A model generated the notes under the pieces. It was given only the letters and a program-made list of their open reading frames with translations, had not been told where the DNA came from and made no database searches. Made by a program: the position numbers and the translations under genes. DNA of 61,884 bases, counting the filler, from Sphacelaria rigidula (taxonomy: Eukaryota): assembly GCA_964200075.2 (NCBI GenBank). It is 6 parts of 6 records of this genome, joined end to end, with 100 filler letters (N's around TTAATTAATTAA, not from the genome) between each part and the next. Parts side by side here need not be neighbours in the genome. Positions count along the whole stretch, not along the records: positions 30,998 to 41,227 come from CAXNAA020006890.1; 5 more parts are not named here. One strand, written 5' to 3'. Of the stretch, positions 22,130 through 44,600 are shown in pieces; position 1 is the first letter of the stretch, and the number at the start of each line of letters is the position of its first letter.

Positions 22130-22642
22130 TTCTGTAGGGTACGGGTGTGTTCGGTAGGGTATGAGATTTCTCACAGAACTTACAGCTGTCGGGTACCGGG
22201 ATGAAGGTCTTGCAGAACTCCACACCGTGGACAACGACAAGAGATCGCTGCATTGGCAAAAAGTGTATTACGTACAGTATCGAATACATTGTCTATGTCG
22301 ATGGGCCATAGATACTGTACCCGGTACACTTTTTTCCGATATAACATTTTGTCCCTGGTGTGCAGAGCTTGCAGAAATGTCGGGTACCGGTATGGAAGTC
22401 TTTTTAGAACTTACAGAACCCGTCGGGTACGGTATGGAACCTGCACAGAAACCCTCAAACGCAACCGGGTATTTGTACCAGGGCATACTCGTACCCCGGA
22501 TGAGGGTGGAAATTTTGTACAGATCGTACATAACGTTGGGTCCCGGTATGGGAGGCTTACACAAATCACAGAACTGTCGGGTGCCCGTATGAGACGCTTA
22601 CAGAACCTATAGGGTACGGATAATACCCGGGATACCCCGGGT
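22130..22642 (+). repeat. Intronic element built from ~42-bp units (CAGAACTTACAGAA..GTCGGGTACCGGTATG)
   Basis: Several degenerate unit copies, ending in TACCCGGGATACCCCGGG. Confidence 0.75.
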
Positions 22643-23455: not shown

Positions 23456-23548
23456 ACAAACGAGGCTGGAGACCCCATCGAGCCGTTCAATCTGCGCAAC
23501 GAGCGGGACATCGGTTTCTTCGATGCCAACGGAAACTTCGTGTGGAAG
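23456..23548 (+). CDS. CD2BP2: CD2BP2/Lin1 (U5 snRNP 52K) exon
   Basis: CAG|ACA..AAG|GTAAAA, 93 nt. TNEAGDPIEPFNLRNERDIGFFDANGNFVWK matches the conserved ITPFNL.EE.EEG.FD.DGNY motif. Confidence 0.9.
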
Positions 23549-24069
23549 GTAAAATGACAGGACCGGTCCTCTTATCGATCTTCAGGAGCCGCCGCTTGGT
23601 ACTCGGGTTTGAACGTTATTTTTTTTCTTCATTTTTTCATTTGTAGATTTTGTAGATTTTTAGGTTTAGTTACTCCCGTCAGAAATATTGTGGTATTGTA
23701 TATAAGTGTAGTAATGAGTGTAGGACCAATAGATGAACCCCATCTCCTTGTATGGAAGTAGTCCACCACGTTTCAAACGGATTGCTGTACTTCCGTGATT
23801 GTTGACCGGCGGACGGGTTCCGTGAGCGCCCCATACACGGTCAACCAGGACGTACGTCAATCGCGTCAAGAGGCCATATATTCTCGGACAGCTGAGCTAG
23901 AGTACCCCTCTGTGATTTATTTCACGATGTTGAGTGTTTCGTCAGGTGTTGCAGGAGTATGACACCCACGAAGAATACATGTTTTTCAATATTGGACGTT
24001 TCGGCGTTATGCACACGGCGTATAGAACATGTAGTCATTCTCCAATAATGGATGTGAAATTCAGTGGGG

Positions 24070-24410
24070 CTTCTGACGGTTGGGTCGTGGGTTCGAATCT
24101 CGGTGCAGTCACGCCACCTGGGATTTTTTCTCACACCATGCCCAACAGTGGAGAGCGACCACGTCGTGGGTACACAAAACTCGACTTGACGGTCGACGAG
24201 GGAAACGGACCGCTGAACCCCTCTCGCGATAAAAAAAGAAGACAAGCACCGCAGAAGGAAGGTGGAGTGCTAGAAGAAAATGAAAACGAAAAAGCTCCCG
24301 TGTTGGCCTTCCTTCCGTGTGAGCCCCGCTGATGCACTCACATACACCGAAAGGTGTAGACTGGCGTTCAGAATAGATGGATGACAACACCCAACACACA
24401 CTCGCGCACG
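24070..24410 (+). mobile_element. tRNA-derived SINE (family B), head partly truncated
   Basis: B-box GGTTCGAATC. Body matches the minus-strand copies at 37060-37431, 41400-41642 and 42307-42624. Confidence 0.85.
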
Positions 24411-24766
24411 CGCAGCGTAGTGATGATAATTATGGGGACGATAATGATGAGGTGGGGAGGTTGGTAGTGCTGACCAAGCCGAAACAATGAATAGCGCCAA
24501 CTTTTGTTCTAAAACATGTTCCGGGGCCGAGTCGGGCTCTAATGCGCGTCTGTTGCGTGCCCTGTCTGACGGTTATTATTTTTGTTTTTGCTCGTCTTTT
24601 GTTCTGAAAATAGAAGAAAAAAAAAAAAGAGGAAGCGAGAAATGGAGAGAGAGAAAACAACGAGAAGAGACGGATGAAATGCTCCCCAACGATAGCCCGT
24701 GTTGTTTCTTGTCATTTGTTGTATTTTGCGTTCTGGCTTTGAAAATTATGATGATGCGCACAACAG

Positions 24767-24849
24767 AAAGAGGAAGGGGAGCGAGATGCGTGGCTGGCGG
24801 AGATGGACGAGGGAGCTATGGAGGAAGCCATCGGGGCTGCAGCCACCAG
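24767..24849 (+). CDS. CD2BP2: CD2BP2 exon
   Basis: CAG|AAA..CAG|GTGCGG, 83 nt, phase 0 to 2. KEEGERDAWLAEMDEGAMEEAIGAAAT contains the RD.WL motif. Confidence 0.9.
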
Positions 24850-24876
24850 GTGCGGCGAGACAAAAAAAATTGTGTA

Positions 24877-25888
24877 CAGGCTGGTTCAGGGTGAACGCCC
24901 AAAATTTTCTTCCCACTGGATACAAAACGCAAAAGTGACGCGATATAGGCATATTTGGTGTCATATTGACCCCGACGAGCGAGCGAACAGTGTGACATGG
25001 CCAGATTATTCTTGTGTCCTTTGCCACCGCGCTATCAGCAATAGTGTTTCTAGGCGAATCAGCGGCCTCGAAATTGCTCTGAAATTAAGAATGCGAATTT
25101 CTGATTCAATTTGTGCCCAATCTCATCACGCATTGAACTGTAGTAATAGCCATCAGCTGGGGAATCTAACGCAAGAAACAGATTTGAAAACGGTTTGTAT
25201 GATATCGAGTTATACCCCGAAACATGGTATTTTCTATTTTCTGTGATTGTGGGGTTTGGGCGTCGTGTGATTTCCCCTGATACTATGCATCCAAGATCCA
25301 GCAGGCCCCTTGACGTTTCCCTTGTAACGTTCGTAAAAAAACTCCGATCATCCTCAAACTTGACAGTTTGGTAGATATGGGTGCTATGAGTAGAAGGGAA
25401 AAACGTTGCACAATATTCCGAAGTGTATCTGCCCTTTACCAGCTTCCGGGGGTCCCCAGCGTGAAGACTCCCAGAAGTCGGTACAGATTGCTAGAAAAAA
25501 AATGATTAGTCTGGAGGTAGCCCTAGGAACGTTTGTACAAAGTTTCGTTGCGTAACTCGAAAAGGTGATCCCAAAGTGTCGATTTAAGCTCAAGCATACA
25601 AGGTAAGCGTCGGTAGCATACCAAATCAAGTATTTAGGGAGTTCAGCGTACGTGTGTGTACTTCAACGCACAAACGGCCAATTGCCCACGCCGTTTTTTC
25701 CGACTCCCTTCCTGGGACCCCGGATATCTGGCGAAAAAAGAAACAAAAATCAAAGAACCCCGTTGATTCATACAGCCCACTAAAATATCTCAGAGCACCC
25801 GTGTGCAAAATTTCAGGATTTAATTCCAAATTACGGCGTGAACAATCGCTGGGGAGTAAATCCCGGTCATTCACCCTGAACCAGCCCG
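24877..25888. mobile_element. 1012-bp non-autonomous Tc1/mariner-type element
   Basis: TA-CAGGCTGGTTCAGGGTGAA ... TTCACCCTGAACCAGCCCG-TA; no transposase ORF inside. Confidence 0.85.
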
Positions 25889-25901
25889 TAATGAGCCATC
25901 C

Positions 25902-26150
25902 TACGGTAGGGGTTGGAGACGTTGGGCCCGGATTTTTCTCAATCAGGGGCTCCTAAAGTTATGAGATACACTAGAATATGGGTCAGCACATTCCCTTTTT
26001 TCAAACACATTCGGGATATCCCTACTATCATAGCCCGTTGGAACGCTAGTCATGGTGTGTTCTCACATATTCCATGTGCTGTTTCCTTGGACGAGATAGA
26101 TGGCTCCTAACAACTCAAAATCTCGAAAAATATTTTTTTGCACCACTCTT
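25902..26150 (+). mobile_element. Copy of the TACGGTAGGGG MITE family
   Basis: Same terminus and internal CATTCGGGATAT and GGCTCC.AAC motifs as 6506-6710. Confidence 0.6.
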
Positions 26151-26179
26151 GTAGTATATATATATGTATCGTCATACTT

Positions 26180-26275
26180 GAATCTCTCCCCCTCCTTGGG
26201 ACGAGTCCGTGGTCTCAAGGTATCAACCTATTTCTCCCCCGTTATACTCCTCGCATTTGCATTTTGGTATTCATA
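26180..26275 (+). repeat. Dispersed repeat family C fragment
   Basis: CCTCCTTGGGACGAGTCCGTGGTCTCAAGG.ATCAACC, also at 57170-57300 (+) and 36880-37010 (-). Confidence 0.7.
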
Positions 26276-26301
26276 CGAGCTGGACCGCCCAAGATGCGAA
26301 C

Positions 26302-26970
26302 AGGAATGTTGACACGCGATTTCTGAGCTTAATTTTGAGTCGTTTTCGATGAAATTTTGAAGTGATGTACGGGACGTATATTCGAAGACCCCGCCTTACC
26401 CCCCAGTGTCTTTTTTGTCCTTTCCTCGTGAGTTATCGGCAATTTTGTTCCGAAATACGATTCTGAAATATCTCGTCGCCAACAAGTCACGAAGGGAAAG
26501 AAAATGACACGGGGGGTAAGGATAAGTCTTTGCACATACTGTACGTCCTGTACATCATGTAAAAATTTAATCGAAAACGTCTCAGAATTAAGCTCAGAAA
26601 TCGCGTCATTCTGTCGAAAACCGCTTCCTATAATATGTGGTGATCAGCGTGCCACGAATAATTCAAGCGCAATTATGCTGGTCAACTTCAAGTTGTTTTC
26701 GACGAAATTTTGACACGATGTACAAGACGTATGTGCGAAAACCCCGTCTTACCCTCCCTGTTTTTTTTCTTCTGTTTTTCTTCGTGAGTCATCGGCAACT
26801 GTAGTCCGAAAAAAATGTTCTGAAATGTTACGTCGCCAATATCTCTCGAAGAAGAAACACACACACACGAGAGGAACGAATGGGTCTCCGCACATACGTC
26901 CTGTACATGGTATCAAAAGTTGATCGAAAACGACTAAAAATTGAGCTTGGGAGCCGCATCATTCTCTCGG
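26302..26970. mobile_element. Two tandem copies of a ~300-bp palindromic (foldback) unit
   Basis: Unit 1: ACGCGATTTCTGAGCTTAATT.TGAG.CGTTTTCGAT ... ATCGAAAACGTCTCAGAATTAAGCTCAGAAATCGCGT. A second diverged unit spans ~26680-26970. Confidence 0.8.
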
Positions 26971-27106
26971 AATCGACTTGTCTTCTCCTACTTTCGGCTC
27001 AGAGGTCTTCACAAACTGCTCGTTAGTTCGCACACTACTACCAGACGCCTTGGCGCGCTGGGGACCTCGTCTGCGTGCCATCTCAGAGACTGCGCGCCTA
27101 GTGCGA

Positions 27107-27717
27107 CATACTTCCTCTGCCCCATAAGTAAAGTCCGTTATGGAGGATAGGCCGTACCTCGCCAACGGAGGTGCTCACGATGTTATAGTTAGGTTCGTTG
27201 AAAATATATAGTAATGGATATGGCCACTGAAAAAAACAAAAACAAAATAATCAACCTACAACCTTGTAATCGTTGGGTCAAACATGACCAAATTTCGACC
27301 AAATTTCGCCAATCTGTACATTGTCGGTCGAATTTCGACGAATTTGGCTCATTTTGAAGTAATTGAAGGCTACAATGTAAACGAGTGGTTTCGGACTAGG
27401 CGTAGTTACCGTATGCCAGCGACGTAGCGGAGAAAAAAAGCCAGCTGTGCCTTTTTTCTCGATTTTTGCCGCTTTTCGGGTTTCCAGGGTTTTTCTCTGT
27501 GTTATGGAAAAGGGGCGAAATATGGTCATTTTTGGGCCGACTGATCGTTTATCGGCCGTTCGCGCCCGCTGGCTGCTGGGCAAACGGGAGAAAAAAAGAC
27601 GTGATTCAACTAAAATACCCCTGAAGATTTCGAAAAAAATATCGCCTACGGCATTGGGCACGGTCAAGGGTCCGTGTGATTATAACGGACTTTACTCATG
27701 GGACAGAGGAAGTATGC
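27107..27717. mobile_element. Element bounded by ~34-bp inverted repeats
   Basis: ATACTTCCTCTGCCCCATAAGTAAAGTCCGTTAT vs ATAACGGACTTTACTCATGGGACAGAGGAAGTAT. The same motif occurs at ~3278. Confidence 0.6.
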
Positions 27718-29925
27718 CGTTGTACAATCGCAGCTTGTGCGGCACCACGCGGCGCAACCGACTGTATCCGAGAATCCAATCTCAGCAGTTTTATTTTTGG
27801 CTGATTCCGCCGCACATGGGACCCTCAAGTCTCTACACTTCGGCACTTGACTACAGTTCGGTATTTCGTTTGGCACCGAGTGCATAGGTACGGGTCGTTA
27901 TGAAATCATCAAACTGAAATCATCGATTTTTTCGTTGTTTTTCATTACTCTTGTCGGGATTTTCGCTGGATGCGTGCGTTACTCGAATGCTATCTGCCAC
28001 AGAGAGGTCAACAAAATTGCACTGTTCGGTGATTTGTTGTCCGGGCCTGTTCTGGACTTGAATTCCCTCCGTTGACTGGCTACAGCCCCCCAGGACAGCA
28101 GAAGGAGGAGAGCTGAAAAAAAAAGTGCAGTCAGCATCGATAATATTTTGATACACACCAAGATGGCACCAAGTCAAAGCAAGCGAAGCGTACACCTTCA
28201 AAAGGAAGCGGCGTTCTAGCACACGAGATCGAATACACAAGAGAGATACATTATTGCGTTGGCTGCATGATGTTCTATGTGTAGAGTGCTTGGTTGTCTG
28301 ACGCGTTGTGTCGCAACAACTTTCTGTCGCGATACCGACTGGATCTGTATCGCAAAATGATCCGCCAGCGCTGGTGAGCCAGTTGGCACCGTGCTCAATT
28401 GTCACACATGTCTGTACGGCATCGACCAACGCGACTCATACGGAACAACAGCACGACAGCCTACAAAAGGGGGCCAGCAGCATTGATGCGTGTGGAGCCT
28501 TTTTCTCCGTTTATGTTCCGTCCGAGCAACATGAAACACCACACAACGATGACGATGGAGCCGTCTTGAATAGTGCCCCGTATCCAAGGTCGTGCAGATG
28601 CAGCAGCAACCCAAGCACAAATGGAGACTGCAACACCAAACCAGGCCACCGCAACCATACCGCGGGCATGGCGACACTCATAGCAAACGTTGGGTACACT
28701 ACCCAGTAAACCAATAGACAGAGCACCGGTTGTGAGACTGCCGTCGTCTTGGATATCATTCTGCCTCCGCACGGTGCTGCACTGCGGCTGCGGGCACCAG
28801 AAGACCGGCAAAACCATGTGTGACGGAACCTGTACTAAAATCAAGTTTGTACTATGAAATATACTATGAAACGTGAAGGGACTGGTCAAAAATTCAAATT
28901 AAATTACTTGAAATTGGTGTGTGTACTAAAAAAATACACCCGTACCCATGGACCCACCGCCTTTCGTTTGATGAGACCTTGTCGGTAGGGCTACATGGAT
29001 TTGAAGACGCGCGCTGATGTGCCGATCACCACTATGTGTCATAGTAGGCACAACTCGCGATACATCATCAGTTGGAACGGGCTGAAGGAAACCGATCTTC
29101 TTAGGCGGCCCAGCTCGTACCGGGGATTGGATCATGACCATCAGTACTCCCACTTCGAATCGACTCTCGTCTGACAAAACTCAGCCAAACGGACTCTGTT
29201 GTGCCACTATATAATGATACTCACCTACGTCTTGCCGACTTGTTCAACGACGGAAATCAGATTATTTTTTCAGAAATTGTAGGGGGAAAAAAAAAAAAAG
29301 AGGAAAATGCCAAACAATTTCAGAGGCATCTGGTGGGAACCGAACCCCATTTTTTCTTTCGACCTATTGGTGTCAGATATACAACACCATTAGATCACCA
29401 GGCCACGGCGGCATGAATCTCGTCATGTATTCGTTGTATTTGGCTTAACTTCTGCGTTTCATTGAGCTGAAAAGCAACCTGGACTGCTCTGTGGCACTGA
29501 ATAAAGTCGGATTTGGATTGGAGCTCTCCGTGTGCGTCCGACGGGATGGATATCTTTTGCGGGCGGGGAAAGTGCGGCGTACACGGGGCGTTTCCTCCAA
29601 ATTTTGCATCGTGATTGTGTACGGTGGAAACACGTCATGGGTCTAAAAACATAGTGCCGGCGGTCGCCGACGTGCTTTGTATCTAGTACACCATGTACAT
29701 GAACTTGGAAGTAAGCCACGCCGGACGAAAGCCGAAGAGCGGATTTGCAAAACGGAACACAGTTACGGTATAACGAAACGTAAGAATGATGACAACGTGA
29801 TGGGACGGGAGAGGACAATAAAAATAAAGCCGACCGAGTCCTCGGGGCCTTGGGGGGGGTGCATTATCGCAGAAGCGAACCTTACGATTGATTGGTTGAT
29901 TGATTGATTTTGATTGGAAGCCCAG

Positions 29926-30117
29926 GTCGGCGGGAAGGAGCCAAGCGGAAGATTCGGCGGCGGCCACGGTAGGGGGGGGAGGGGCGGGTGGTGGCCTGTC
30001 GGGGATGGGGACAGCGGAGATGAGGGATGCACTGATTCCCCTGCTTTTGCCTGAGGAGACCGTGGTGCAGGCGTTGAGGCGGCTTGGGAAGCGATCGAAA
30101 GACGCACGGCCAGGAGG
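29926..30117 (+). CDS. CD2BP2: CD2BP2 exon
   Basis: CAG|G..GG|GTGAGA, 192 nt, phase 2/2, matching the upstream exon. LIPLLLPEETVVQALRRLG matches the conserved L.P.ETV..ALRRLG motif. Confidence 0.9.
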
Positions 30118-30169
30118 GTGAGAGAAGTCGGTTACGCAGACAGGGGGCAGGGGCAGGGGGGAGGGGGGT

Positions 30170-30432
30170 GAGGGGGGGTGTACTCATGATCATGCATACC
30201 ATAATCAGACCATTGACCTCGCATCCCTACAAAGCCGGGACGGAGCACACCGGGTTTTCGGTGAGTCGCACGACGGGTGAGCTGCATCCTGCTAAGATTG
30301 TTCAGCCCGAAGCCTATTGGTTATCTTGCATTTGTTTGACAGCCTACAATGAGTGGCTTTATTTTCTGGTATCGCCACTTCCAGAGACAGCAACGGCTTA
30401 TACACTGCCTCACGGATGCCTCACCATGGGGG
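30170..30432 (+). repeat. Dispersed repeat family A
   Basis: Aligns with 20790-21060. Confidence 0.85.
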
Positions 30433-31099
30433 TTGTAGACAGTTTAACGGTTCAGTACACAACGCAATGACGTTTCACCACACACGTGTCACGCTTTATT
30501 TTTTAAACACGAATACTGCAGTATTGCTGTGACTCTACCAACCCCTCTCTCATGAGACAGTGATTGGATCATGACCCTGGTTCGTTACTCTCGTACTTGA
30601 TCCTTATCCTGTGCTCTGGGGGGGGGGGGTAGGTAGGAATCCCTCGCAGAAATTCTACCGTGACCTCACCAACACCCTTCCCCCACGAGATTGTGATACG
30701 CCGCGGTAACCCTGCTTCGCTCCACCTATTTTGTGTAGCATCCATCTCTCGCTTATCCCGTAGGAGGGTGGTGTATGTGGGAGGGAAGGGGGGGGGGGGG
30801 GGGGGGGGGGGGGGGAAAAACAGCGGCTTTGGGTTGAATGGTGGCTACTATCATCACCAAGATGTTTGAGGGTTGGAAAAGGAGTCATGGTGTTTGGNNN
30901 NNNNNNNNNNNNNNNNNNNNNNNNNNNNNNNNNNNNNNNNNTTAATTAATTAANNNNNNNNNNNNNNNNNNNNNNNNNNNNNNNNNNNNNNNNNNNNTAG
31001 TATACAATGCCTGTCGGGAGACATGCTCTGTCATCTGTTGCCACAAATTCAATACGAGATACTGTATATATGTACAGAGTATGCTACACTCTATTGCAG

Positions 31100-31247
31100 T
31101 ACGGTAGAGAGGCCGCAGTTGAACGTGTAGTGGGTGCAGGATGATACTTGATGATTCTGCAAATTCGGAACGGTTGGTAGGGATCCGCAACATGTACGGA
31201 CGGAAGTTTACGAGTTTGATGGTGTGGTGTTGGTACTCAGGGAGAAC
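31100..31247 (-). CDS. Possible next pseudokinase exon (activation-segment region); 3' end uncertain
   Basis: CAG|GTT gives VLPEYQHHTIKLVNFRPYML..., in frame only if the upstream exon uses the GCT|GTAGGC donor (ending 32874). Confidence 0.3.
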
Positions 31248-31379
31248 CTGATGGACAAGAGCGCTCAGACTACTTTTGTGTGCGGGTGAGATGCGCTTAC
31301 ACGTTGGACAACAGACCGTGTGATAGAACACTGTCGCCACATCAGCCCCGAAGATGTGACTGCCAGTGCCTACTGTCAG

Positions 31380-32650
31380 CCACGATCTACTGGTATCGCT
31401 GCCTATCGATAGCTATTGTAAGCAAAAAGGGACAGAAGGTTATCACTGCTGTGACAACTGAGCAGCCAAGTCGCCTATCGCTGTATACATAATTTGTTGC
31501 AATAGGCTCTGAATCGCGACCAATGTCTATCGCAAATTGCACTAGAAGCTGCATTAATGGCGACCGCCACACGTGGCTGATCGGCTCCCCCTCAACAATA
31601 TTACACCCTGAAGGAGATGTATATATATATATGCTATTATAGAGTGTCCTGATTCTTACAGAGCATACAGAATGTGGAAGCTCTAGAATGCTAATATTTC
31701 CTCTGGAATTGCTTGTCACAGGGCTTGTTATACCTCGAGCGTCAAGACTGCTCGAGAGTATGCAGTATGTGAAGTATGTAGAGGGTAGATATTCCCGTGA
31801 AGGAAAACCAAGCCCGCCAGAGGACTGCAAATGCTTTCAAATAAGCAACAGCGGCAGATGTAGAGCATTGCACAATATTCTGAGGGTTGAAAAACTATTG
31901 CGCCGGATGGGAGCCGATTGGCTACGTGTGCACCAACACATACTGGCGATCACAATAGAATCTAAATTGCGCCCACCAATATCTATTGCTGGTAGCAATA
32001 TAACATGAACCGCGGCCACCAATGTCTATCGCTGGTCACAAATACGATCTGGGTCCCCGCCAGCAATATATATTAATATATATTGCGGTGGCCACACTAG
32101 TAGTAGCTGAATGGCGTCGATCAAAAGCTATCTATCGATACACATATCTTGGTGGATGTTGCCATCTTATTCCACACGAACTATCGCCAGCTATCGCCTC
32201 AGGTAGTTGCGTGTTCGTGTGTAAGGATTATTGCCGTTGATGCCGTAAGGCCACTCCAGTGAGTAATATATGCATTGACGTCATGGGCTATCGATAGATG
32301 CCCTCTACAGCTACCCATTGTTGACGGCAACGACTATTGATAGATGCCCGTAAATACGTTGTTGTTGGGGACAAAGGCTATCGATACGTTGTTCACCGAA
32401 AACTGTATTGATGAAGGCAATGGCTATCGATTGATGCATACCAGAATCTATTGCGGTATACGATGTCCATCGATGACCAGCGATGTAAATGTACTGTAAT
32501 CGCTATACACTGCTGATCGACGCTTGGAACATCGATTGTCGCGTGCAATACATATCAACAGATGTGTTTCACGATCTATCGTGCTCTTCGATAAATATCG
32601 ATAGCTGTACCCCCGCATCTATTATTGAAGCAATAGACTATTGTTGTGTT
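31380..32650. repeat. Intronic region dense in CTATCG(ATAG) palindromic motifs, with a ~45-bp periodic array at 32286-32480
   Basis: GGCTATCGAT-like cores at 32286, 32332, 32376, 32422 and 32465, plus many scattered copies. Confidence 0.65.
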
Positions 32651-32786
32651 CATTGTCCAAAGTGCCAATACAAGTTTGTCTCTATGGTCTCTGACGGTAA
32701 CCGAATGCATGCTATGACTCTATTTCCGAAGAGTGTTGGCTATTTCACAAGGACAAGAGTCAGCAGTGTTCCGTGGCAGTACCTAA

Positions 32787-32828
32787 ACATACATACATAC
32801 ATACATACATACATACATACATACATAC
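32787..32828 (+). repeat. (ACAT)n microsatellite
   Basis: About 10 tandem units. Confidence 0.98.
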
Positions 32829-32866
32829 GGCTTACTCTACTCGAGGAACTCCAAGTAGGAGCTCAC

Positions 32867-33006
32867 CGCCTACAGCACGGAAACCCTGGAGCCAGATGCG
32901 CGACATGGCTTCGTTGATGAGGATGTTCTGAGGCTTCACGCCCCCATGAACCAACCGCATTTGTTCGTGCAGAAACGTTAGGGCAGATAGTGCCTGCCCC
33001 ATCAGC
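32867..33006 (-). CDS. Pseudokinase exon: alphaE, catalytic loop and DFG-equivalent
   Basis: CCAG|G acceptor, phase 2. Encodes LMGQALSALTFLHEQMRLVHGGVKPQNILINEAMSRIWLQGFRA(VG). Donor G|GTGAGC (ends 32867) or GCT|GTAGGC (ends 32874). Confidence 0.9.
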
Positions 33007-33684
33007 CTGGTAGCAAACGCACATCGATCGAAATGCTATCCCGTCAGGAACAAATCACTGCTGGCGCCGTCATGTACTAGAGCAGGCGCATTCACACAAT
33101 ACTATACTTTTGATGTTTTGGTTCGACCCTTGTTTCGATTAGCTGCTCCAGGGAGAACGGGCAGCCCGACCCTACAGAGCCTCTCTGTTTTCGTTTCCAA
33201 CGTATCGACGACAATGTAAAGTCGTACATATCAACGACTACGCAGACAAACAACGTTCCACCCGTCGTGCGTATTATTTTACTTCGGTGGTCCGTGTTGT
33301 CGGAAAGAAGGGCAAATGACTACAGTACCAGGGGTGGTTTGGAGAGACAGGCTGCTGCCAACGACGGCATGCACATGCAGCATTGATCGACTCTTCATTT
33401 TCGCGGAAACACCAAACGTCCAGCTCCCCCTTTCAACCATTCGAAGTCTGACGACAACTTACTCGCTAGCAGAATGACTGGCTCACGCACAAATATTGGC
33501 ACTGTCCCGCAGACCTTGAGAGGCCGAAGTGTAACACTTCAACAGCGACATGGAAACAGAGACAGCGACGATATTATAGTTACACTCCGATGTGCTGTAA
33601 CAGGACGAACTACGAAGAACGCCCTGCCGCTATGCTATGAAACCGAGCTATAATACGAATGCGAAGAATACACCACTAACACAC

Positions 33685-33816
33685 CTCATCCGGCGCGGCA
33701 TCGTGACATCCCAGATGCCATTCCTCAACTTGAAGTAAAGAGTACTGTGGGTCCGACGCGTGACGATGGTGTGGCTCAAGTGATCCATGAAGTACACGGG
33801 GATGATGTTCGAGTGC
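33685..33816 (-). CDS. Pseudokinase exon: subdomains IV-V
   Basis: CAG|G..AG|GTGTGT, 132 nt, phase 2/2. Encodes HSNIIPVYFMDHLSHTIVTRRTHSTLYFKLRNGIWDVTMPRRM (HxNI motif). Confidence 0.9.
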
Positions 33817-34474
33817 CTGTTGTCAATTCTGCGGCATCACGCAAAAATAAAATAAAAGATAAACGTGAAAGAAATCAATTGGGGCTAAGAGGACGGGAGG
33901 AACGGAACGCCATGTACTGATAGCTGTCTGTGAAATAGCAGTCAGCGATCTTGTGGAAACGCACACGTAGGTGGTATACATGCAATAAATGTTTGGTCCA
34001 AGTAGCGAACGTCTGACGCGACCAGCATCACGCGCAACAAGCTACCGACATTTTACACGAGGGATCCATACCGTACAGCAATATGTGTGCAGCTGTTTAG
34101 CACTACAGTAGTACCGTACCGCACCTAAGCACTAGCAAATACCCAAGCTGGGGGGAAGGCCGTCACGATTCAATTGTTCGAGAGCCGAAGTAACCGTTTA
34201 AGGATATGGCTAGCTGTGTTGCGGTTTGGGAAAAGAGTTTCCACGTCGCCTCTCTCTCGAAATTACGGTGGCCACTTCGCTGCTTCAAGTGAAGTGCTTG
34301 TAGCGATCAAGTCCACACCTTTTGCCTGTTTCGGGGGTGTGAGATGTGGTGGGGAAAAATCGGTGTTCTCTCGAGAAATATACATCGCTGTTGAAATACG
34401 GACCACCGCGGCTGTGGGATACAGCGAGAACCTGACTGTGCATGTTGCAGAAGGGTAAAGGGTACACGACTCAC

Positions 34475-34530
34475 TTGATGAAAGCCTTCATTTCGATGAC
34501 AAAGCGCTGGTTCGCCAACTCATCGGTCCG
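34475..34530 (-). CDS. Pseudokinase exon: alphaC helix
   Basis: CAG|CGG..AA|GTGAGT, 56 nt, phase 0 to 2. Encodes RTDELANQRFVIEMKAFI (F..E motif). Confidence 0.85.
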
Positions 34531-35242
34531 CTGGTAAGGTTTTCAACGGCAGTGCAACACGGCGAGGGCGACGTGGCATCGGGCACGAATGTCAGACACA
34601 GGCAGGCGATGACATAGCCAACTGGTGACTGTGCACGTTTGGACTAGTTATCGAACGTCCGGCAACTACCGTATGTATGTGACCATCCAGATTCCCTCGT
34701 CACTCGTGTAACCCACTCTCCTATACCATGTACAAGTTGAGGTTCATATCCGAAGCTGACAATAAAAGCTTCATGCCCACCGGGTCTAAAGTGTACGGGC
34801 CGGAGGGACAGAATATGGGGAAGATTGAGCCGGGGAGGTCTGGATGGGGGTCCGACAGCGCAAGACGTAAAAGCAAAGACCAGCATAATCAAACACATGC
34901 GCATGAATATTGAACATTCCCCAGCCCCAATCCTCTTGTCCTCTAGCTCTATTGTGATATAAAAGTGATCTCGAAGGATACCGGTGGAACCGTTTGTCGG
35001 TCTGTCCTCATTGGCAAGCGCCTTCTGACGACACGAGGGTGTAGTATCCAGAAGAAACAAAAAGGTTGGACGAAGCGGCGGAAGACGAAAGGGAAACTAA
35101 ACCCCACGCCGAGCTCTGGAACGCCCATGAACCGGTCAGACTTATCGCATCGCAGGAGAAGAGATGAAAACTGCGGCCATGTACAAAGAGCTTGACCGGG
35201 AACCCTTACCCTTCAGCTAAAACGTACACATATTCTGCCTAC

Positions 35243-35335
35243 ATCTCTAAGTTGCTTGACGAGCAACCCCTTGTTCTCCGTCAGCCGAAGAACCTTCCCG
35301 TCCTTTGTGGCATCGACGTACATCATCGGGGTGAA
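35243..35335 (-). CDS. Pseudokinase exon: degenerate Gly loop and beta-3 Lys
   Basis: CAG|TTC..GAT|GTAGGC, 93 nt, phase 0/0. Encodes FTPMMYVDATKDGKVLRLTENKGLLVKQLRD (LLVKQL equivalent to VAVKxL). Confidence 0.85.
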
Positions 35336-36235
35336 CTGTGCGCACGTCATCATTCAGCGAATGTCGGGCGAAGGCGAAAAGATGGACGGTGGACGAAGTA
35401 TGTTTCGGTGCTGTACTTTTGAGATCGACTCTGATCACAGAGGGCATGAGTCATTCTCCAGTTAAACAATATCTTGAAAGCAAACGAGCACAAAACACGA
35501 AGCGAGCAAAAACGAGTACGCAAAAAGTGAATACGCTCAACATGAATTTCAGTACATGGCATGTAAACAACACATACGGAAGGAAATAGCTGCGCCGAGG
35601 ATACATCTAGTGCTGGATATATACGTACAGCACATGAAACCAAGCGTCCGAATTACATACGATTCTCTCGCCAAGGTGGAATGGAAAGCCCCCAAAGCTC
35701 GCGAAGCTTGTGCTTCGTTCTTCTCGTATTCACAAGTCATGAATAAAAACGATCACAAGCAAAATGGCTACGTGCTCTTCATTTGGTTGCTTGATGCCTA
35801 CCCAAATAAATGCACGAAGCCACTTAATGCTGCCGGGAAGGTTTGGACCGATTGTCTCCGATGATTCAAAGACTGCGCTTGTCGCGTGCATAGCTCCATC
35901 AAGAGTTGGGGGCACTTGACTGTGACAGCTGCATGCTGAAGCAGGAGACAGTCGGGAATAACTCGAGCCCAACTGCGCATTATTCGGTGCTAGTTGTTGT
36001 GTTATCCTCATCCTGGCCATGCGGTGTATATACATCCTCATTCGCTGACAGACGAAGTAAGCTCACACAGTTAAAGCGACAGTTTTCCGTGATAGGCACG
36101 AACTATGGCGAACGTACTCCTAAACATGCAAAAGTCTGCTACAGAAAATATACTGGTGAAAAAGATATGCGATTTTTGCTCCGCTCAGTGTGTCATGGAA
36201 CGATACTGTATGGCCTTGACCTCTGCTGTGCATAC

Positions 36236-36409
36236 CTGCGCCCTGCCACCAAGTTCCAGCACCCACGACTCTTCTACCTCAACGTCATCTCCTAGCTTTG
36301 CGGCGTCGGCCAAAAATTGCGCGCCCTCGCCCTTCAGTCTTTCCCAGGTGTGCGTGCAGAAAAGGAACGTGCCAGAGGCCAGCCTTGTCCGCTCCCGTTC
36401 CGGCAGGTT
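36236..36409 (-). CDS. Exon immediately N-terminal to the pseudokinase domain
   Basis: CAG|AAC..CAG|GTATGC, 174 nt, phase 0/0. Encodes NLPERERTRLASGTFLFCTHTWERLKGEGAQFLADAAKLGDDVEVEESWVLELGGRAQ. Confidence 0.75.
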
Positions 36410-36557
36410 CTGTGGTATCTCGACACGTGAAAGGCCGGGGCGGGACACGGTTGTGAGAGAATGGCGACGATCTTTTCCTTTCCAATCGCAAGGTCAACTG
36501 GCAGGCTTTGAAAGTGTTGTCGCAGAGGAGTGTGGCGTAGATGAAGGGGACACATGC

Positions 36558-36593
<36 letters not shown>
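36558..36593 (+). repeat. (AAC)n microsatellite
   Basis: About 12 units. Confidence 0.98.
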
Positions 36594-36594
<1 letters not shown>

Positions 36595-37059
36595 GCGCGC
36601 GAGGTGCCAGTGGTTGCTGAGATAATAGCTGAATGTGTGCTCATGCCCTGTTCATACGCACAATATGACCCCAGGAAAGGGCTGTCGCAGATTTCTGGTG
36701 TGAATCTCAGCCGCGCCCCAGTGGTCCAAATTGAAACGACACGACTGAAACCAGCAAGCTAAGGTAGAACATTGCGGGGTCGAATGCCGAGAAATACGAG
36801 TTGAGCTTTCTTGTCTGAGATCTTGTTCCTGTCGCTGAAGCGTGAGGATATGAGAAGCACGAAGTCTGTATTTGACCAAAGTCGACGCCGTGCGGAAGGG
36901 CTCATGGTCATGATCCAGTCCTCGAAACAAAAACAAAAAAGGGTTGTGCAGTATCGGGGGAGAGGCGGGTTGATCCCTTGAGACCACGGACTCATCCCGA
37001 GGAAGGAGAAGAGCTAACGGAATAACGGCAGCGCCACAAACCCATCGCTAGCTTGTGCT

Positions 37060-37431
37060 GTAGCTTGTTCCATCCGTTGTCACCCCATCTACTCTGCACG
37101 CATGTCTACATCTTCCGGTATATGTGGGCGCATCAGCCGGGGTCACGCAGGAGGAGAGCCTACGCAGGGGCTTTTTCGTTTTTATTTTGTTTTAGTGCTT
37201 CGCCTTCCTTCCGCCGCGCTTGCCTTACTTTTTATCGCGAGGGGGGCTTAGCGGTCCGCTTCCCTCGTCGACCGTAAAGTCGAGTTTTGTATACCCACGA
37301 CATTGTCGCTCTCTATTGTTGGGCATGGTGTGGAGAAAAGCCCATATCATGTGACTGCACCGAGATTCGAATCCACGATCCAACCGTCAGATCGTCACGA
37401 GGTTACTCACTGAGCCACCTGGGCGCCCGGC
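37060..37431 (-). mobile_element. tRNA-derived SINE (family B), near full length
   Basis: Minus strand reads GCCCAGGTGGCTCAGTGAG (A-box) ... GGATTCGAATC (B-box), followed by the family B body. Confidence 0.85.
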
Positions 37432-37724
37432 GTTATTACCGTCCCATGGACCCCACAATTGGGTGGAAGCACTGTGTGGACCATGTCATGTTTCCGAATC
37501 CTTCTCAGACTGCATATACGTATATCGAGCAATAGACGTAACTTCACGCCGGAACGATGATTTCTGTTGCGATTGTTCGCGCACATTCGTCTCGCCCCGG
37601 TTCTGCTCCGTCTCGAAAGGGATGCGTGGTCAATGGTCAAAGGACTGAGGCAAGCAACAATGAGTATTCCCCCTCCCCCGTTAACTCCACTTGTATCTTG
37701 ATATATTGGTTGACTAAAAAAGAT

Positions 37725-37950
37725 TGCTGGCTGACTGACTGTCGCACATCAACATTAACTGATCTACTATGAATCCACAGCTGTGGTCACACGACAGACG
37801 TGCCCAGGGTGAATAAACGTGAACACCAGCTATAGGAAGCTCGATAAGTGGGGAAATGGAGAAATGACAACGAGAAAGAGAGCAGAGAGGGAAAACCGTA
37901 GAGCTCAAACTGAACACAACAGAACAAAAGAGAAGAGAAAAAAAAACACC
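37725..37950 (-). repeat. Family D: non-LTR 3'-end fragment
   Basis: CAGCTGTGGTCACACGACAGACGTGCCCA core shared with 55720, 57510 and ~10484. Confidence 0.65.
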
Positions 37951-38453
37951 AGGCTGCTGACAACTACTCGTAGTATACTAGCGGTTCCACAACAATGCCG
38001 GGGGAATAAATTGCAGGCCCCCTCCGCATGGTTCTATGAAGCGAGGCCGTACAAAAACAAGCGAAACGAAACGGCAAACGCCGTCGTCTGTTTGTTTTAA
38101 CATTGGCTGGAGAGACGGTGGAAAAGCTTCCCTTTCGATCAAAGATATAGATCCTTCATAGACGACTGGAGAATTCGTTGTAGAAATCGTTGTCTTTAGT
38201 TGATTCTGGTCGTTCGTGCGGTGATGCTGTGCACTGGCTCGCCCACTGGTAGGTCCGGGTCAGGACAAGTGATTTGGAGCTGCTGTTCGTACCCAAAACA
38301 ATGACTTGTCCCACAAACCGCAGTGGGCTAGCAACCAATGTCCGCTTGACGGTGGGTGAGGATGGATAACGTACAGCGCCATCAAGTGGCACGAGTTTTC
38401 TAAGGGTAATAGTGTCTCCCGATGGCGTGGGTAATATCGGCCAACGACCACAC

Positions 38454-38622
38454 TCGGACGAGCTCCTCTATGATTGGTAGGACGAGCTTGCTGAAGGGTT
38501 GGTGTTCTGCGCGCCTATCACGTCGCGTGGCGACATCACAGAGCTCGAAGGCTACATATGAATAACCATCACAATGGCACAATGGGGCGAGCAAGTGCGA
38601 GGTGGCTTTCGCGGCAAACCCT
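38454..38622 (-). CDS. Probable helical-domain exon of the pseudokinase gene (alternative start 38551)
   Basis: Encodes GFAAKATSHLLAPLCHCDGYSYVAFELCDVATRRDRRAEHQPFSKLVLPIIEELVR, phase 2 to 0. Splice sites are weaker. Confidence 0.55.
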
Positions 38623-38810
38623 CTTACCGAGCGAGTCTCACACATGGATAGAATGAGGATAGAATGTACGGTATACACTATATCTGCCTTTTGTTCTGGA
38701 CAATGGCTCAAGCTTGTCGGCGTGCACGTGCTCGACTCTGTCACCCGGAGAAGGCCACTCCCTTGTTCAAAAGCCTTGTTTTTCACCTTGAAGGAAGGAT
38801 GAAACCTCAC

Positions 38811-38968
38811 CCAACACTCGACCCCGCGAAACGGTTCGTGGGCCGACTACCCGGAGGTTCGGCGAGACCACCGCGTGCGTGGCAGTTAAGTGGAGTAGGC
38901 ACCTCGAGTGTTCGGAAAGCTTCGCCCGAGGTAGTGTCGGGGCTGAGCCCGCTGAAACCCCGTATCAG
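38811..38968 (-). CDS. Probable low-complexity juxtamembrane exon
   Basis: CAG|CTG..GG|GTGAGG, 158 nt, phase 0 to 2. Encodes LIRGFSGLSPDTTSGEAFRTLEVPTP... Confidence 0.55.
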
Positions 38969-39269
38969 CTGGGCGCAGTGTACGCGTCGCCCTACCTTTA
39001 CAAAGGCCTCGGCCCTCGTTGGCACAAGCCTTGTGTATCACTCAAAGCAAACGGCTGAGAGGGCTCTGAGTCACCCAGTTACAGGATATCAGTGCCGCTT
39101 CAGGACTCACGTAGCCGAGGAAACAACACGCACAACGCACGCGCTGCTTGTGAGGTGGGAATTCTGGTGATGCCCGGCGTTCACTGCACGGTATGATGCT
39201 GTCGAATTGTTTCTGCGTATGCATGCGCAAGGTCTGTCCGAACCTCGCGATTGAATCGCTGATACTCAC

Positions 39270-39421
39270 TCTCTCTTCTCCGGCTCTTCCTCGTGGAGAG
39301 GGTACCTCCTGGAAGCGAACGGCGGCGGACGCGCTCCTTCCGCAGTCCGACCAACACCGTTCGGCGCGCTGCCCGATTCCATCGCTTGGCTCACCATCCC
39401 ACTCGCGGGAGAATGAAGCTC
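39270..39421 (-). CDS. Probable low-complexity juxtamembrane exon
   Basis: CAG|GA..AGA|GTGAGT, 152 nt. Open in two frames; the phase 1 to 0 reading links its neighbours. Confidence 0.55.
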
Positions 39422-40433
39422 CTGTGTTGTTGAGGCATGACAACCAAACGGTACATGGTAGGGGTTGTTAACGCGGCGTCAGTACATTTATCTTGTGCTG
39501 GAATTAATGGAACGATGATATGGGGGTTCAAGCATCGTGGCGGTCCCTCGTACTTCTGAAAAACAGGTCGCAATTCGAAAGACGTATCGGTGCTGCCCGA
39601 CCACGACACGCGCATATTCTCGGAAAATCGCCGTATCGCTTCGATACCAGTGCACGCCTATATTATAGTGTATAGTGAGCGTGGAGACACATTTCACGAC
39701 CGACCTATCCCCAACGTGGGTGGGAGGGAATGCTTCGATCGGACGGCTGCCGAAGAAGCCATTGTGAGCCTTGGCCTGAGGCGGAGAGTAACGTGTAATT
39801 GGCACGGTCTTGATGTCGATATTCACGATAGCTGGGCGGCGCGTTACACCGTGCCGCGAAAAAGTACGCACAGAAGCGGGTGATTGCACGTCACGCCCAC
39901 GAGACTCCTTGTTCCGAGCAGCAAGTCATATCCCCCGTACTTACTGTGAAGCGATCTCGAAAACCAACCGTAGGGTACAAGACCAGGTTTGAAGCGTTGG
40001 GAACTCGCATTTTACTATTGGGCCCACTATAATCGGCACTGTTTTTGTCAGAGATGTCAGAATTGTTTACAGAGTTTCCGGACTCTGCGTTCCGACTTTT
40101 CCGAGAATGAAGCGGCGTGATTTTTCCTCCGAAGATCCACTTTTGGACAAGTCGGAAAAATCCGGTCTGCAACGCAGCATTTCGGAGAGCTGCTGTGTGA
40201 GAACGCCGTGGCGGTCTCAAGCATTCGAGAACCATCAGGTACCTTGGTAGACCCGACAATTTCGGAGATCTGCGGAAAAGCAGTGTCCATAATGATGGGC
40301 CTGAATAGTAGCGCGTGCTTCGATTTCCTCGTTTCCTCTTTCCCTCTTGAAGCGATTAGTGCTTCGTGCTTATCCGTATTTGAGGCAGCCCGAAACTCGG
40401 CAACTATAACACAGCTTTTCGGGTTATACTTGC

Positions 40434-41100
40434 CTTGTGATAGAGGAGCCAGGGGGCTCTGGCTTTGAGACAGAAACGGATGCGCTTCCTCCTCGCCTGG
40501 AGCCTTCGTGTGCCGCCGGTCGAATCGCCTCTTCCACCAAAAAAGCGTACATGTCACGAGCACGACTATACCAATTACAAACATATAAGCCAAGTCCTGC
40601 GGAATGAACGGCGGGGGCGAAGCATCCACGACCGCTGTACCAAGCGGTTGGCACTGGGCCATGCATACTGGCTGCCATACGTGGCGAGGGTCTATCGAGG
40701 GTGACGGCGAAACAACCACCGCTCGGGCATCGTCGGCTACGCCCGTCTGCTGCTGCTCTTGCCCTTGTCCTTGCCCTCGTCCGTGATCGGAGTCGTCAGG
40801 CGTGCAGACACATTGCTCACGCCTCTGCCACGGCCATTCCCAGCGCACGAGAGCCTTCTCCTCGCCTCTTTCCTTGATGTTGTTGTTGTTGTTGTCGTTG
40901 TCGTTGTCGTTGCCGTCGTCGCCGTCGTCGCCGTCGCCGTTGTTGCGGCTAGGGTCAACACCAACGTAGAGGCTGTTGGTGTTGCAGTCGATTACGAGGA
41001 CTTTACCGTTTGCACCCAGCTGCTTGAGGTCGACAGGCTGGTGAGGCGGCGTACCCAAGCCAGCGGGTCGCCCAAGGGATATTTGCCTCATCGTTGAGGA
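40434..41100 (-). CDS. Exon with end of ectodomain, Asn/Asp linker and a single transmembrane helix
   Basis: CAG|TCC acceptor. Encodes ...PVDLKQLGANGKVLVIDCNTNSLYVG..., then the TM segment LAYMFVIGIVVLVTCTLFWW followed by KRR. Likely GC donor CAAG|GCAAGT. Confidence 0.75.
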
Positions 41101-41399
41101 CTGGTTGTTGGATCGTGTGCCGATTCTAGGGGTTTCGGGGGAAAATGCATCAAATAACCGAGTGAGGGAGGAGGGTGGAAGATCATCGCGGGTTCAACAT
41201 GCAGCCAGATTACACGGACATATAAAGNNNNNNNNNNNNNNNNNNNNNNNNNNNNNNNNNNNNNNNNNNNNTTAATTAATTAANNNNNNNNNNNNNNNNN
41301 NNNNNNNNNNNNNNNNNNNNNNNNNNNCCTTGTCCCCTGGTCATCATCCAGGATCCTACACATGCTACATCTACTACGCCTTGGTGTATTTTGGCTACA

Positions 41400-41642
41400 C
41401 GTCCCATCTATTCTAGACCCCCGTCTACACCTTTCGGTATATGTGGGCGCATCAGCCGGGGTCACACAAGAGGAAGATTAACACACGAGCTTTTTGTTTT
41501 TTTTTTGTTTTCACCACCCCACCTTCCTTCTGCGGTGCTTGCCTTTTTATTTTTATCTCGAGAGGAGTTCAGCAGTCCCCTTCCCTCGTCGACTGTTAAG
41601 TCGAATTTTGTGTACACACGACATAGTCGCTCTCCACTGTTG
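41400..41642 (-). mobile_element. Headless SINE family B copy at the edge of, or inside, the Gypsy remnant
   Basis: Matches the family B body; lacks A and B boxes. Confidence 0.8.
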
Positions 41643-44600
41643 CATCTGCTACACAAATTGACCCCAAAACCGCGTGTTAGTTTCAAACGATGATGCGATA
41701 ATATTCCAACCCATTTGCGGCACATTGTTTTCGATTCATCTGGTGATGGTTGGACACCCACGGGGATCTATAGGCTGAGATCCATCTTGATCAAGATATT
41801 CTGAACGGTTTTCCACACCGCTTTCAGACTTGAGCCGATGTAACACATTATCGTTTACCATCAAAATTCCTGATGGCACTCCCCTCATAGCTACGGGTCC
41901 GCACCGTGCAAACCTCCTGTTAGCGGATAAGATATAAGTTATTCTCAACGGCTACTTATCCGCTGGTTTAATAAGACACTCGGCGCCTTGGTGGGTCAAG
42001 CCTCTAGTTATCGTCCGGAAGAAGCATGGCAAAATTAGACTGGCGATCAAGTACCGACGATTGGGCGCAGTCACTAAAACCGAGCGTCTGCCTCTCCCAC
42101 GGATGGATGAGATCATCAACTCCCTTGACGGGGGTAAAGCATTTTCAACCTTTGATATGCAGCCTTACTGCCATCAGGTCGTGATGGACCCGAACTCTTT
42201 TGAACTGAAGGCGTTTTGCACGCTGTGAGGCCTGAATAAATGGCTGGTAACACTGCAGAGTGTCGCTGGCGCCCCCCGGGGCGATTCAACGTGTGTTTCT
42301 GAAAGGCCGTCTACAGCTTTCGGTATGCGGACCAGCCGGGGTCACATACGAGGAAGGGCAACCAAGGAGTTTTTTCTTTTTTGTTAGTTTTCAGTACTTC
42401 ACCTTCCTTCTGCGGTGCTTGTCATTATTTTTTATCCCAAGAGGAGTACAGTAACCCCTTTCCCTCGTCGACCGCCAAGTGGAATTTTGTGTACCCATGA
42501 CATGGTCGCTCTCCACTGTTGGGCATGGTGTGAGAGGTAATCCAAGATCTCTCCGAGACTTGAATCCACGACCCAACCGTCAGAAGGTTTCGAGGTTACC
42601 AACTGAGCCACCGGGGCGACCGGTGCATGGTAACCTCTGCTGCGCTCCTTGCTAGGAGGCCTAAGCTACTACCGACAGTACTTGCCTAACCTAGCCCAAA
42701 CTCTGAAACTCCTCATCACCCTCCTCAAGAAAGAAGTGAAATTTGTGTTCACGTCGGAAATGGAAGATATCGTACGTAGACTGCTTGGCACTCTTGCGCA
42801 ACCGCAGATCCTGATTTTTTTCAGACTGTTCGGCCGCGAAAAAGGGTTCACGTCCTTTTCAACCTTACACGAATTCCTCCAAAAATGGGTTTGACCGCAC
42901 GTAGAACAAGAGCAAGGAGGCGCTAGTGTTCGTCCGATTGCATATGTGAGTCGAGCCACTTTCCCGAACGAACAGAATTGGTCGGTCGTGGAACAAGAGG
43001 CGGATGCAGTTATTTGGGTTGTGCGACGTCTCCGTTAGTTCTTGTATGTCATTCCGTTTTGTGGTTTATACAGATCATAAGCCTTTGTGAAACCTCGCCA
43101 AGATGACGGAACACAACGCAAGGGTTCAACACTGGTCCGAAATCCTGTCGTCTCACGATTCTGACTTGAAGTATTACCCAGGATCCCAAAATACAAACTC
43201 CGACTCTTTGTCTCAGTTGCCCACACCGGCTAAACCTATCGATGAATTCGCCATGGGACGCATCACGGATCCTACCGAAGACGTTGCATATTTCATTAAC
43301 AGGAATGGTCATCAATGTCTCTACACACCACTCTCACTGATCCACACGCCGGCGTTTGCCACGGATGGGCTGACAACTACAGCTCATGCTTCAGTACTGG
43401 GAAGTTTATAACCCGAACCGTCGTTCTCCGTCTGGAGTGGACAGCCTGCAAACACCGTTGGTTATGATCATTTCCGTACAACTGGCCAACAAGTGATTTT
43501 TGCATCAGATGTAGAACGGTCTTGTTCCGACTTCGTCCTTCCGGTTCTAGTTCGAGATTTGATTTCGAGTAGAACTCGAGGATGACCGTCCGTCGAGACG
43601 GCCGCCAAACTGGCAGTCTCTGGTCCTGACCTTCCTTTTCTTACCCCCATTCCGGTACCTGATAGCTTCCTTGCGCCCCCCCAACCCCCGCTGCGCAAGG
43701 CTCCCCCCAGAAGATCGACCCCAACTACGGCACCCCTGCCCACCATAGCCGAAGCTCTGGCTGTGCCCCCTTTTCCCATTGATGTTCCCAAACGATACCA
43801 CATCGCCAAATACGCTAATCGATGTAGGGTAGATGACAACGGACCGCCTGAAGATGCACCACCTGGTAGCCCCACCCCTGATCCAAATATCGACGCTTCG
43901 TGTCAACAAGGCTATGACCCGAACCAATGCGTAGTGGACGCTCTATTAACTAGTCTATTCAGGGAACGCTTGACTCGATTCTCCCGCGCCGATTGGGCAC
44001 GCGAACAACAAGCATAATCTCCTTGTCGAGCGGCTACTCATTTTTCTGTCCAGTGGAGGTCCATGTCCATTTTCAGAAACTGAATTCCTCTTGCCCGTCG
44101 GGAACCACAAGGCCCTCACACAGGATGGGGTGTCTGAACTATCGTCTAGAGGCATGCTACGCACGGATGATGGTGGTGTCATTCTTTTAGTTCGCCGGCC
44201 CACAGCGCCCGTTCGCATGGGAAAACCTGCAAGTCGACACGCTCGCTTGCTAGGTGATGAATCCGTCCGAATCTATGTCCCGCAGCTTCTGTGCCCATGG
44301 CCTCTACATGAGTGTCACTCGCCAGTATACGCACATATCGGGACCGTTAGGACTTCCGAGATGCTTGGGCGTTTTTGTTGGTGGATTTGTATAGATCAGT
44401 GTGCACGTTGGTGAGTGCGGCATTGTTTGCTACGCCAAGCGTGCAAGACTTCACGCTAACTTATTCGATGGCCGGTAATTTCTATATCTGTCCCCAACGG
44501 ACCCGGCGAAATAGTCTCGCGGGACTAGTTCGGTCCATTGTCGCTCACTAATGGTGGTAACAAGTACATTTTGTTGTTTACGGATCGATTTGATCGTCAC

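Follow-up and report, generated by a model that had tools for sequence, protein, structure and literature searches.

On the minus strand of a 61,884-nucleotide stretch of DNA from Sphacelaria rigidula (assembly GCA_964200075.2), five short exons lying between positions 36409 and 32867 appear to encode the front half or so of a Ser/Thr kinase domain, after which the kinase would end. The whole stretch, which joins six parts of the genome end to end and is referred to here as the window, is eukaryotic DNA with approximately 49% G+C and with short, regularly spaced N masks. The reading that we prefer, and to which a probability of roughly 0.55 is attached, is that the locus is a transcribed, spliced, truncated and degenerating copy of a lineage-specific kinase family. 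A kinase gene of that family would have been duplicated, and the duplicate, truncated and degenerating, would still be transcribed; both the decay and the lack of function are what we infer. Judged from its sequence, the product would not be expected to transfer phosphate, because it lacks both the Mg-binding Asp and the lobe that would bind the substrate, and, if translated, it might act as a small scaffold or decoy at most. An earlier note on this DNA had proposed that nine minus-strand exons encode a maintained single-pass membrane pseudokinase with an MLKL-like signature, possibly a stramenopile signaling or cell-death component; the analysis reduces this proposal to a Ser/Thr kinase family of the ordinary kind, of which the locus would be a truncated and degenerate but transcribed copy.

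The evidence for transcription comes from contigs of four sequencing runs (X1, X2, X3 and X5) that were placed on positions 31000-41220 of the window. X1 to X3 are small runs of one study and are treated as RNA-like because GT..AG joints are present in them and absent from X5, which is DNA-like; no run is recorded as RNA, and the RNA status of X1 to X4 is a guess. Statements on splice joints refer to the 15 listed of the 51 joints in this interval, and statements on differences between runs and window refer to the variants listed for X1 to X3 and X5. The contig table indicates a divergence of approximately 1-3% throughout, and the runs would therefore derive from a strain other than the assembled one, or from one closely related to it; the DNA-like runs contain only 42-59% of sampled words, and thus the assembly was not made from any of them. 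Intervals without contig cover (39525-40206, 33046-33386 and 34069-34409, plus 38851-39183 in X2) were excluded as evidence, and contig ends at 38850/38851, at 39288/39292 and near 36405 are ambiguous as splice borders, because contigs are interrupted by polymorphism of 1-3% and those of DNA end at the same places (for example at 38364 and 38604).

The nine minus-strand intervals of the proposed chain are open and phase-consistent, every acceptor being AG and the donors being GT in eight cases and GC in one (at 40434). Within the kinase-like part, three joints (35335/36236, 34530/35243 and 33828/34475) are of the GT..AG type on the minus strand and are found in all three RNA-like runs and not in the DNA-like one; the introns that they remove measure 646-900 bases. 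Exon 5 (36236..36409) has an open frame with no in-frame ATG, and is followed by exon 6 (35243..35335), which covers the beta2-beta3 region with the lysine of LLVK, and by exon 7 (34475..34530), which holds alphaC with its Glu (FVIEM), both of these having joints on either side in X1 to X3. Exon 8 (33685..33828) runs from HSNIIPVY, at beta4, through the hinge and the alphaD region, and exon 9 (32867..33006) carries alphaE, the catalytic loop and the GFR motif at the DFG position, with the donor GTGAGC next to it. The acceptor used for exon 8 lies at 33828, 12 nucleotides from the 33816 originally proposed, with a pyrimidine-rich tract just ahead of the AG at 33829-33830, and adds four in-frame residues (an IDNR-type insertion). 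The phase-consistent chain thus stands as regards its frame, its borders and the junctions 36236/35335 and 35243/34530, with the acceptor at 33816 replaced. Exon 9 is covered by contigs of X1 to X3, whose mean depths fit, by simple arithmetic, approximately 139-140 covered bases, the length of 32867-33006.

Spliced in a script, exons 5 to 9 give 202 residues in an unbroken frame. The absence of an in-frame ATG from exon 5 means that either an upstream coding exon is needed or MMYVD, in exon 6, is where translation begins. Among the joints listed, junctions 33006/33685 and 39421/40434 are absent, as are any partners for 36409 and 32867. The junction check that had been called for, especially across the link between the membrane helix and the kinase, therefore yields three joints within the kinase part and none at the borders of exons 3 and 4 among those listed. 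A kinase-like spliced coding region that the ORF (open reading frame) track had missed does exist and is transcribed in the three RNA-like runs; far from being unexpressed, the locus gives RNA-like contigs with spliced joints in each of X1, X2 and X3.

Kinase homology is most readily seen in the last of these exons. The ORF that contains exon 9 (32835-33035) matches positions 101-135 of the Pfam family Pkinase (PF00069) at E 1.5e-5; its 25 bits fall short of the gathering score (31.7), which is expected for a piece of 35 residues; the remaining short exons, taken singly, have no Pfam match, and exon 8 alone finds only a chance-level match in the PDB. As a spliced product, exons 5 to 9 are collinear with kinase subdomains II to VII. 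Our own kinase profile aligns residues 82-200 of this product with its positions 19-136 of 253 and gives 62 bits, of which 52 are reached by the catalytic exon on its own and approximately 10 are added by the exons of the N-terminal lobe (N-lobe), and an unrelated kinase (P0033) aligns collinearly across residues 80-187. The motifs LLVK, FVIEM, HSNIIPVY, HGGVKPQNILI and LQGFR are all in the window as had been reported. LLVK, with the beta3 Lys, is aligned to VAIK of the kinase profile, the E of FVIEM falls in the column of the alphaC Glu, and HSNIIPVY, at beta4, is in register with the profile. The position of the Gly-rich loop spans the border between exons 5 and 6 (..LELGGRAQ/FTPMMYV..), where only one or two glycines are kept, as judged by eye. 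In the profile alignment GFR occupies the DFG columns, and the Mg-binding Asp is absent. This loss seems real and is apparently common to the runs: among the variants listed, position 32941 is the only one that differs within 32867-33006, and no differing base affects GFR.

A kinase fold had been described, yet the subdomains are encoded only as far as the DFG position, and no C-terminal lobe (C-lobe) was found in the window. None of 149 other minus-strand ORFs of at least 28 residues between 19949 and 33054 matches Pkinase at E<=1, nor does any of 150 minus-strand ORFs of at least 33 residues between 5254 and 19945. Positions 137-253 of our own profile, run against all ORFs of at least 12 residues in six frames of the 61.9-kb window, give nothing better than E 6, and the activation segment, the APE motif and helices alphaF-alphaI were not found in the window, including the 32.8 kb downstream of exon 9. 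Read-through past the donor at 32867 meets a stop after 11 codons, and for each of 23 in-phase AG acceptors in 32340-32760 a stop follows after 2-45 codons, none of which resemble a kinase. The protein would thus be truncated soon after GFR. The adjoining downstream stretch (31682..32836) consists of an (ACAT)10.5 microsatellite at 32787-32828 and then a repeat-rich segment.

The catalytic loop itself differs between the assembly and the reads. At position 32941, on the minus strand of exon 9, the window has C and all of X1, X2, X3 and X5 have T, the other base accounting for the entire depth in all four runs; this turns the codon GGC into GAC, Gly into Asp, and HGGVKPQN into HGDVKPQN. The Gly could be either genuine and peculiar to the strain that was assembled, or an error of assembly, and the loss of the catalytic Asp, which had been taken as a property of the gene, is not borne out, as the runs read HGD in four cases out of four. 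Exons 5 to 9 have five listed variants, two of them synonymous and three residue-changing, the changes besides 32941 being F to S at 33790 and K to Q at 36334.

Relatives of the catalytic exon were sought by means of a HMMER search of its 46 residues against 1.84 billion representative proteins, which returned 42 proteins at E<=0.001, three of them close. These are P0004 (44 residues, 66% identity), P0006 (91 residues, 56%) and P0009 (84 residues, 54%), the identities being calculated over 44-46 residues, and all three are single-exon products that read HGD or HAD and keep DFG intact. P0004 corresponds to CAM9696672.1, an 'unnamed protein product, partial' of the brown alga Sphacelaria rigidula, and P0006 and P0009 continue into intron-like sequence beyond a donor that they have at the same place, immediately following DFG plus three residues. 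The three proteins and exon 9 have in common SAL.F.HE..RLVH, KP.N.L.N and M...WL; in this comparison of single exons they differ in that the relatives have HGD or HAD with DFG, whereas exon 9 has GFR, together with HGG in the window and HGD in the runs. Conservation of HGG and GFR among relatives, which was to be expected of a maintained pseudokinase, was thus not observed, and the opposite outcome, intact catalytic motifs, was found in all three close relatives. The other matches among the 42 come from plants, fungi and protists, and are kinases of a generic or multi-domain type. A shared-word search with the catalytic exon among longer proteins gave no homologue, a search with the family profile recovered generic kinases only, and metagenome contigs yielded 29 loci, all of them generic kinases matching residues 1-44 at most. 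One candidate, P0043, from the cluster of P0004, was set aside, as it does not have the exon and looks unrelated.

It is of note that the search also recovered a group of unnamed metagenome proteins of 1361 residues, P0003 and the members of its cluster (P0044-P0052), that have four kinase-like domains in tandem, in which the catalytic loops read HGG, HGD, HGN or HGH and the DFG positions HHF, GFR, GFN or GFS. From their sequences these look like a multi-pseudokinase family. They are distant from exon 9 (38% identity over 41 residues), and differ from it in being multi-domain, with domains that extend into alphaF-like segments.

The second element of the locus is an upstream exon with a transmembrane (TM) helix. 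The TM exon (40434..41091, minus strand), which is plausible as coding sequence, begins at an ATG at 41091 and encodes a low-complexity region rich in Asp/Asn/Gly and in Gln/Gly, followed by a single strong hydrophobic helix (LAYMFVIGIVVLVTCTLFWW) and then by the basic segment KRRFDRRHTK, and it ends at a GC donor. This donor (40434, GCAAGT) appears to be used in splicing in the RNA-like runs, since contigs of X1 to X3 start at 40433 with 48-60 letters that do not adjoin it in the genome. The exon has no Pfam family, and gave no homologue in a shared-word search limited to proteins of near length; no signal peptide was seen by eye after the ATG at 41091, where the first 20 residues are non-hydrophobic (no predictor was used). 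Of its eight listed variants, four are synonymous and four are not. Exon 2 (39270..39421, minus strand), a low-complexity linker, is open between AG and GT borders and, with the ATG at 41091 taken as the start, has its end in phase 0; RNA-like contigs are present in the bin 39184-39524, and its joints are absent among those listed. Two further contigs (39006-39292 and 39025-39288) are unspliced and reach less than 31 letters into exon 2, and were not counted as bridging.

The region between exon 2 and exon 5 would have to contain the link, and the exons proposed there (exon 3, 38811-38968, and exon 4, 38454-38622) lie within a stretch (37631..39292) where RNA-like contigs are collinear with the genome: 37631-38467, 38729-38950 and 39006-39292 in X1, 38065-38850 in X2, and 37971-38364, 38366-38604, 38851-39054 and 39025-39288 in X3. 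Each of the borders 38454, 38622, 38811 and 38968 is bridged by at least one unspliced RNA-like contig. Such contigs are compatible with spliced forms too, precursor RNA or library DNA being possible sources, and could come from either strand. The exon 3/4 region has no Pfam family at E<=0.001, and four of the five listed variants of exon 4 change a residue. Furthermore, the number of open two-exon chains that keep the phase between 39269 and 36410 is 68,118, as compared to 11,852-30,266 on the opposite strand and in three shuffles, and with so many chains possible one phase-consistent chain means little. The linking exons 3 and 4 are thus not supported, their borders being bridged unspliced and their chain not being special. 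The end of exon 2 and the start of exon 5 are both in phase 0, and their direct joining would stay in frame; a link between the TM exon and the kinase exons in one mRNA is possible but unproven. A comparison of the depth of the TM exon (approximately 10-25) with that of the kinase exons (approximately 18-63), considered as a test of one mRNA versus two, was dropped, as the depth of contigs is no basis for ranking the parts of one gene.

How the two elements relate to each other is the point on which the competing explanations diverge. It is possible, and held here as a tentative alternative, that the locus consists of two genes: a small TM gene (41091-40434 plus exon 2, its last exon and 3' UTR continuing unspliced to approximately 37631) and an independent gene for the kinase fragment. 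The collinearity of RNA-like contigs with the genome over 37631-39292 is in line with this arrangement, as is the frame, which, if unspliced at 39270, continues to a stop near 39044 (ORF 39042-39467); the fragment gene could find its own start at an in-frame ATG near 38644, in ORF 38400-38846 and upstream of the donor at 38454, or at MMYVD. These contigs from 37.6-39.3 kb could, however, come from either strand and be unspliced precursor or library DNA, given that the RNA label is a guess, and the prevalence of residue-changing variants in exon 4 (four of five listed) also counts against this alternative. That the TM exon and the kinase-like exons belong instead to one mRNA, encoding a single-pass membrane pseudokinase maintained for signaling or cell death, with a C-terminal part that has diverged beyond recognition, is doubtful. 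Exon 2 can join exon 5 in frame, exon 5 has no ATG of its own, and the donor at 40434 is used; in addition, GFR and a degenerate Gly loop suit a pseudokinase, and the unrelated P0003 family shows that HGG or HGD together with GFR or GFS does occur in kinase-like domains. Nevertheless, in no listed contig is the TM exon or exon 2 joined to exon 5, exons 3 and 4 are bridged unspliced in a region that offers 68,118 chains, no C-lobe was found, HGG is not fixed and the motifs of the relatives are intact; moreover, no signal peptide was seen by eye ahead of the supposed ectodomain of 170 residues, and no N-terminal domain of the MLKL type was found. Least probable of all, and very unlikely, is a protein specific to brown algae in which a membrane anchor (the TM exon and exon 2 joined to exon 5) would carry only the N-lobe and the catalytic loop, lacking a C-lobe and having GFR at the DFG position, as a decoy or docking site for a partner kinase from within the family, an arrangement in which the catalytic-base residue could be free to vary between strains as Gly or Asp.

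A further explanation concerns the 3' side of the locus, namely a complete and possibly active kinase with C-lobe exons that are located beyond the window or have been split off by a downstream repeat insertion or a misassembly. The runs have HGD as well as the Lys and Asn of the catalytic loop, and lack neither the beta3 Lys nor the alphaC Glu; moreover, the position of the donor at 32867 matches that of P0006 and P0009, so that a following exon would be expected, in a place where repeat-rich DNA adjoins downstream. It is nonetheless unlikely, as GFR stands in place of DFG, with no exon 9 difference besides 32941 among the variants listed, and as the confirmed introns span 646-900 bases, yet 32.8 kb of downstream sequence contains no C-lobe match. 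The preferred reading, that of a truncated and degenerating copy, has difficulties of its own. All 202 codons are intact, the splice sites are all canonical and RNA is present in three runs, while a long-dead pseudogene would more likely have stops; the five listed variants of exons 5 to 9 are too few to separate constraint from decay; the C-terminal part may be divergent, or the C-lobe exons may lie beyond the window; the family, as defined from sequence, is compared by single exons; and the 62 bits of our own profile are partly circular over positions 90-136, its members having been picked for their likeness to the catalytic exon.

Several other features of the neighborhood are of a repetitive nature. 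A high-copy repeat (36797..37819), between the linker region and exon 5, reaches depths of 10^4 to 10^6 in all four runs. A dispersed element of approximately 320 bp occurs at 37076-37391, 24072-24388 (minus strand), 41403-41642 and 42327-42623, its copies being 77-82% identical; it is a very high-copy, transcribed repeat, and ARAGORN detected no tRNA in it. A repeat scan of 30998-41227 found trinucleotide runs only. The segment 31682-32704 is repeat-rich and rich in ATCGAT-like words, with a tandem duplication of 43 bp at 31953-32036, and X5 reaches up to approximately 15 times its baseline depth there. On the plus strand, just upstream of the TM exon, ORF 41938-42225 has a weak match to Pfam RVT_1 (E 0.072, below the cut-off) and may be a retroelement remnant. 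No Pfam family was recorded at E<=0.001 for the 128 ORFs of at least 95 residues in the whole window.

The analysis provides an exon model, corrected and backed by RNA-like contigs, of a gene that had not been annotated, and points to a small brown-algal kinase family that has so far been unannotated and is known from single exons only. It also illustrates that a one-base assembly difference at the catalytic base, Gly or Asp, can create a 'pseudokinase signature'. A membrane-anchored half-kinase, if true, would be an unusual architecture.

Among known systems, the region is homologous with the first half of conventional Ser/Thr kinases. Exon 9 finds its closest PDB matches in a LAMMER/CLK-like kinase (E 3e-4), NIK/MAP3K14, SRPK1 and MEK1, among the best 60 of 545, while the family profile is closest to CDK6 (E 5e-8), MEK1, MKK6 and PDK1, among the best 60 of 1732. 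The segment that comprises alphaE, the catalytic loop and DFG aligns with these kinases without notable gaps, and NIK likewise has HGD; conventional Ser/Thr kinases are, however, complete, two-lobed and active, whereas this locus has no Mg-binding Asp and no C-lobe was found for it.

MLKL has GFE at the DFG position, and the two therefore share the loss of the DFG Asp and the retention of Gly-Phe. They differ in that this locus has no four-helix bundle and brace recognizable by Pfam and no complete pseudokinase domain, its HGG is not fixed and the motifs of its relatives are intact. Of the PDB matches, 545 for the exon and 1732 for the family profile, the best 60 in each case do not include MLKL, and no family corresponding to its N-terminal bundle/brace region was found at E<=0.001 among the 128 ORFs of at least 95 residues across the window, which include 36188-36493, 38403-38846, 39045-39467 and 40060-41193 and among which nothing relevant appears at E<=1 either. 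In a literature search on MLKL and brown algae, none of the 10 papers listed, of 3,315, mentioned MLKL, and the search was too unspecific for a claim of absence. The MLKL-like signature is thus not supported, on four counts: HGD in all four runs, intact relatives, no bundle by Pfam, and MLKL outside the best 60 PDB matches.

As regards the receptor kinases of brown algae, a preprint describes two classes, leucine-rich repeat (LRR) and beta-propeller (bioRxiv 10.1101/2024.02.19.579948). Their ectodomains are of the LRR or beta-propeller type, whereas the product of the TM exon described here has no Pfam family of any kind; furthermore, the kinase is incomplete here and the link between TM helix and kinase is unproven. 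What this locus does share with the brown-algal receptor kinases is a TM helix that precedes a kinase-like region located on the same strand, together with a probable brown-algal origin.

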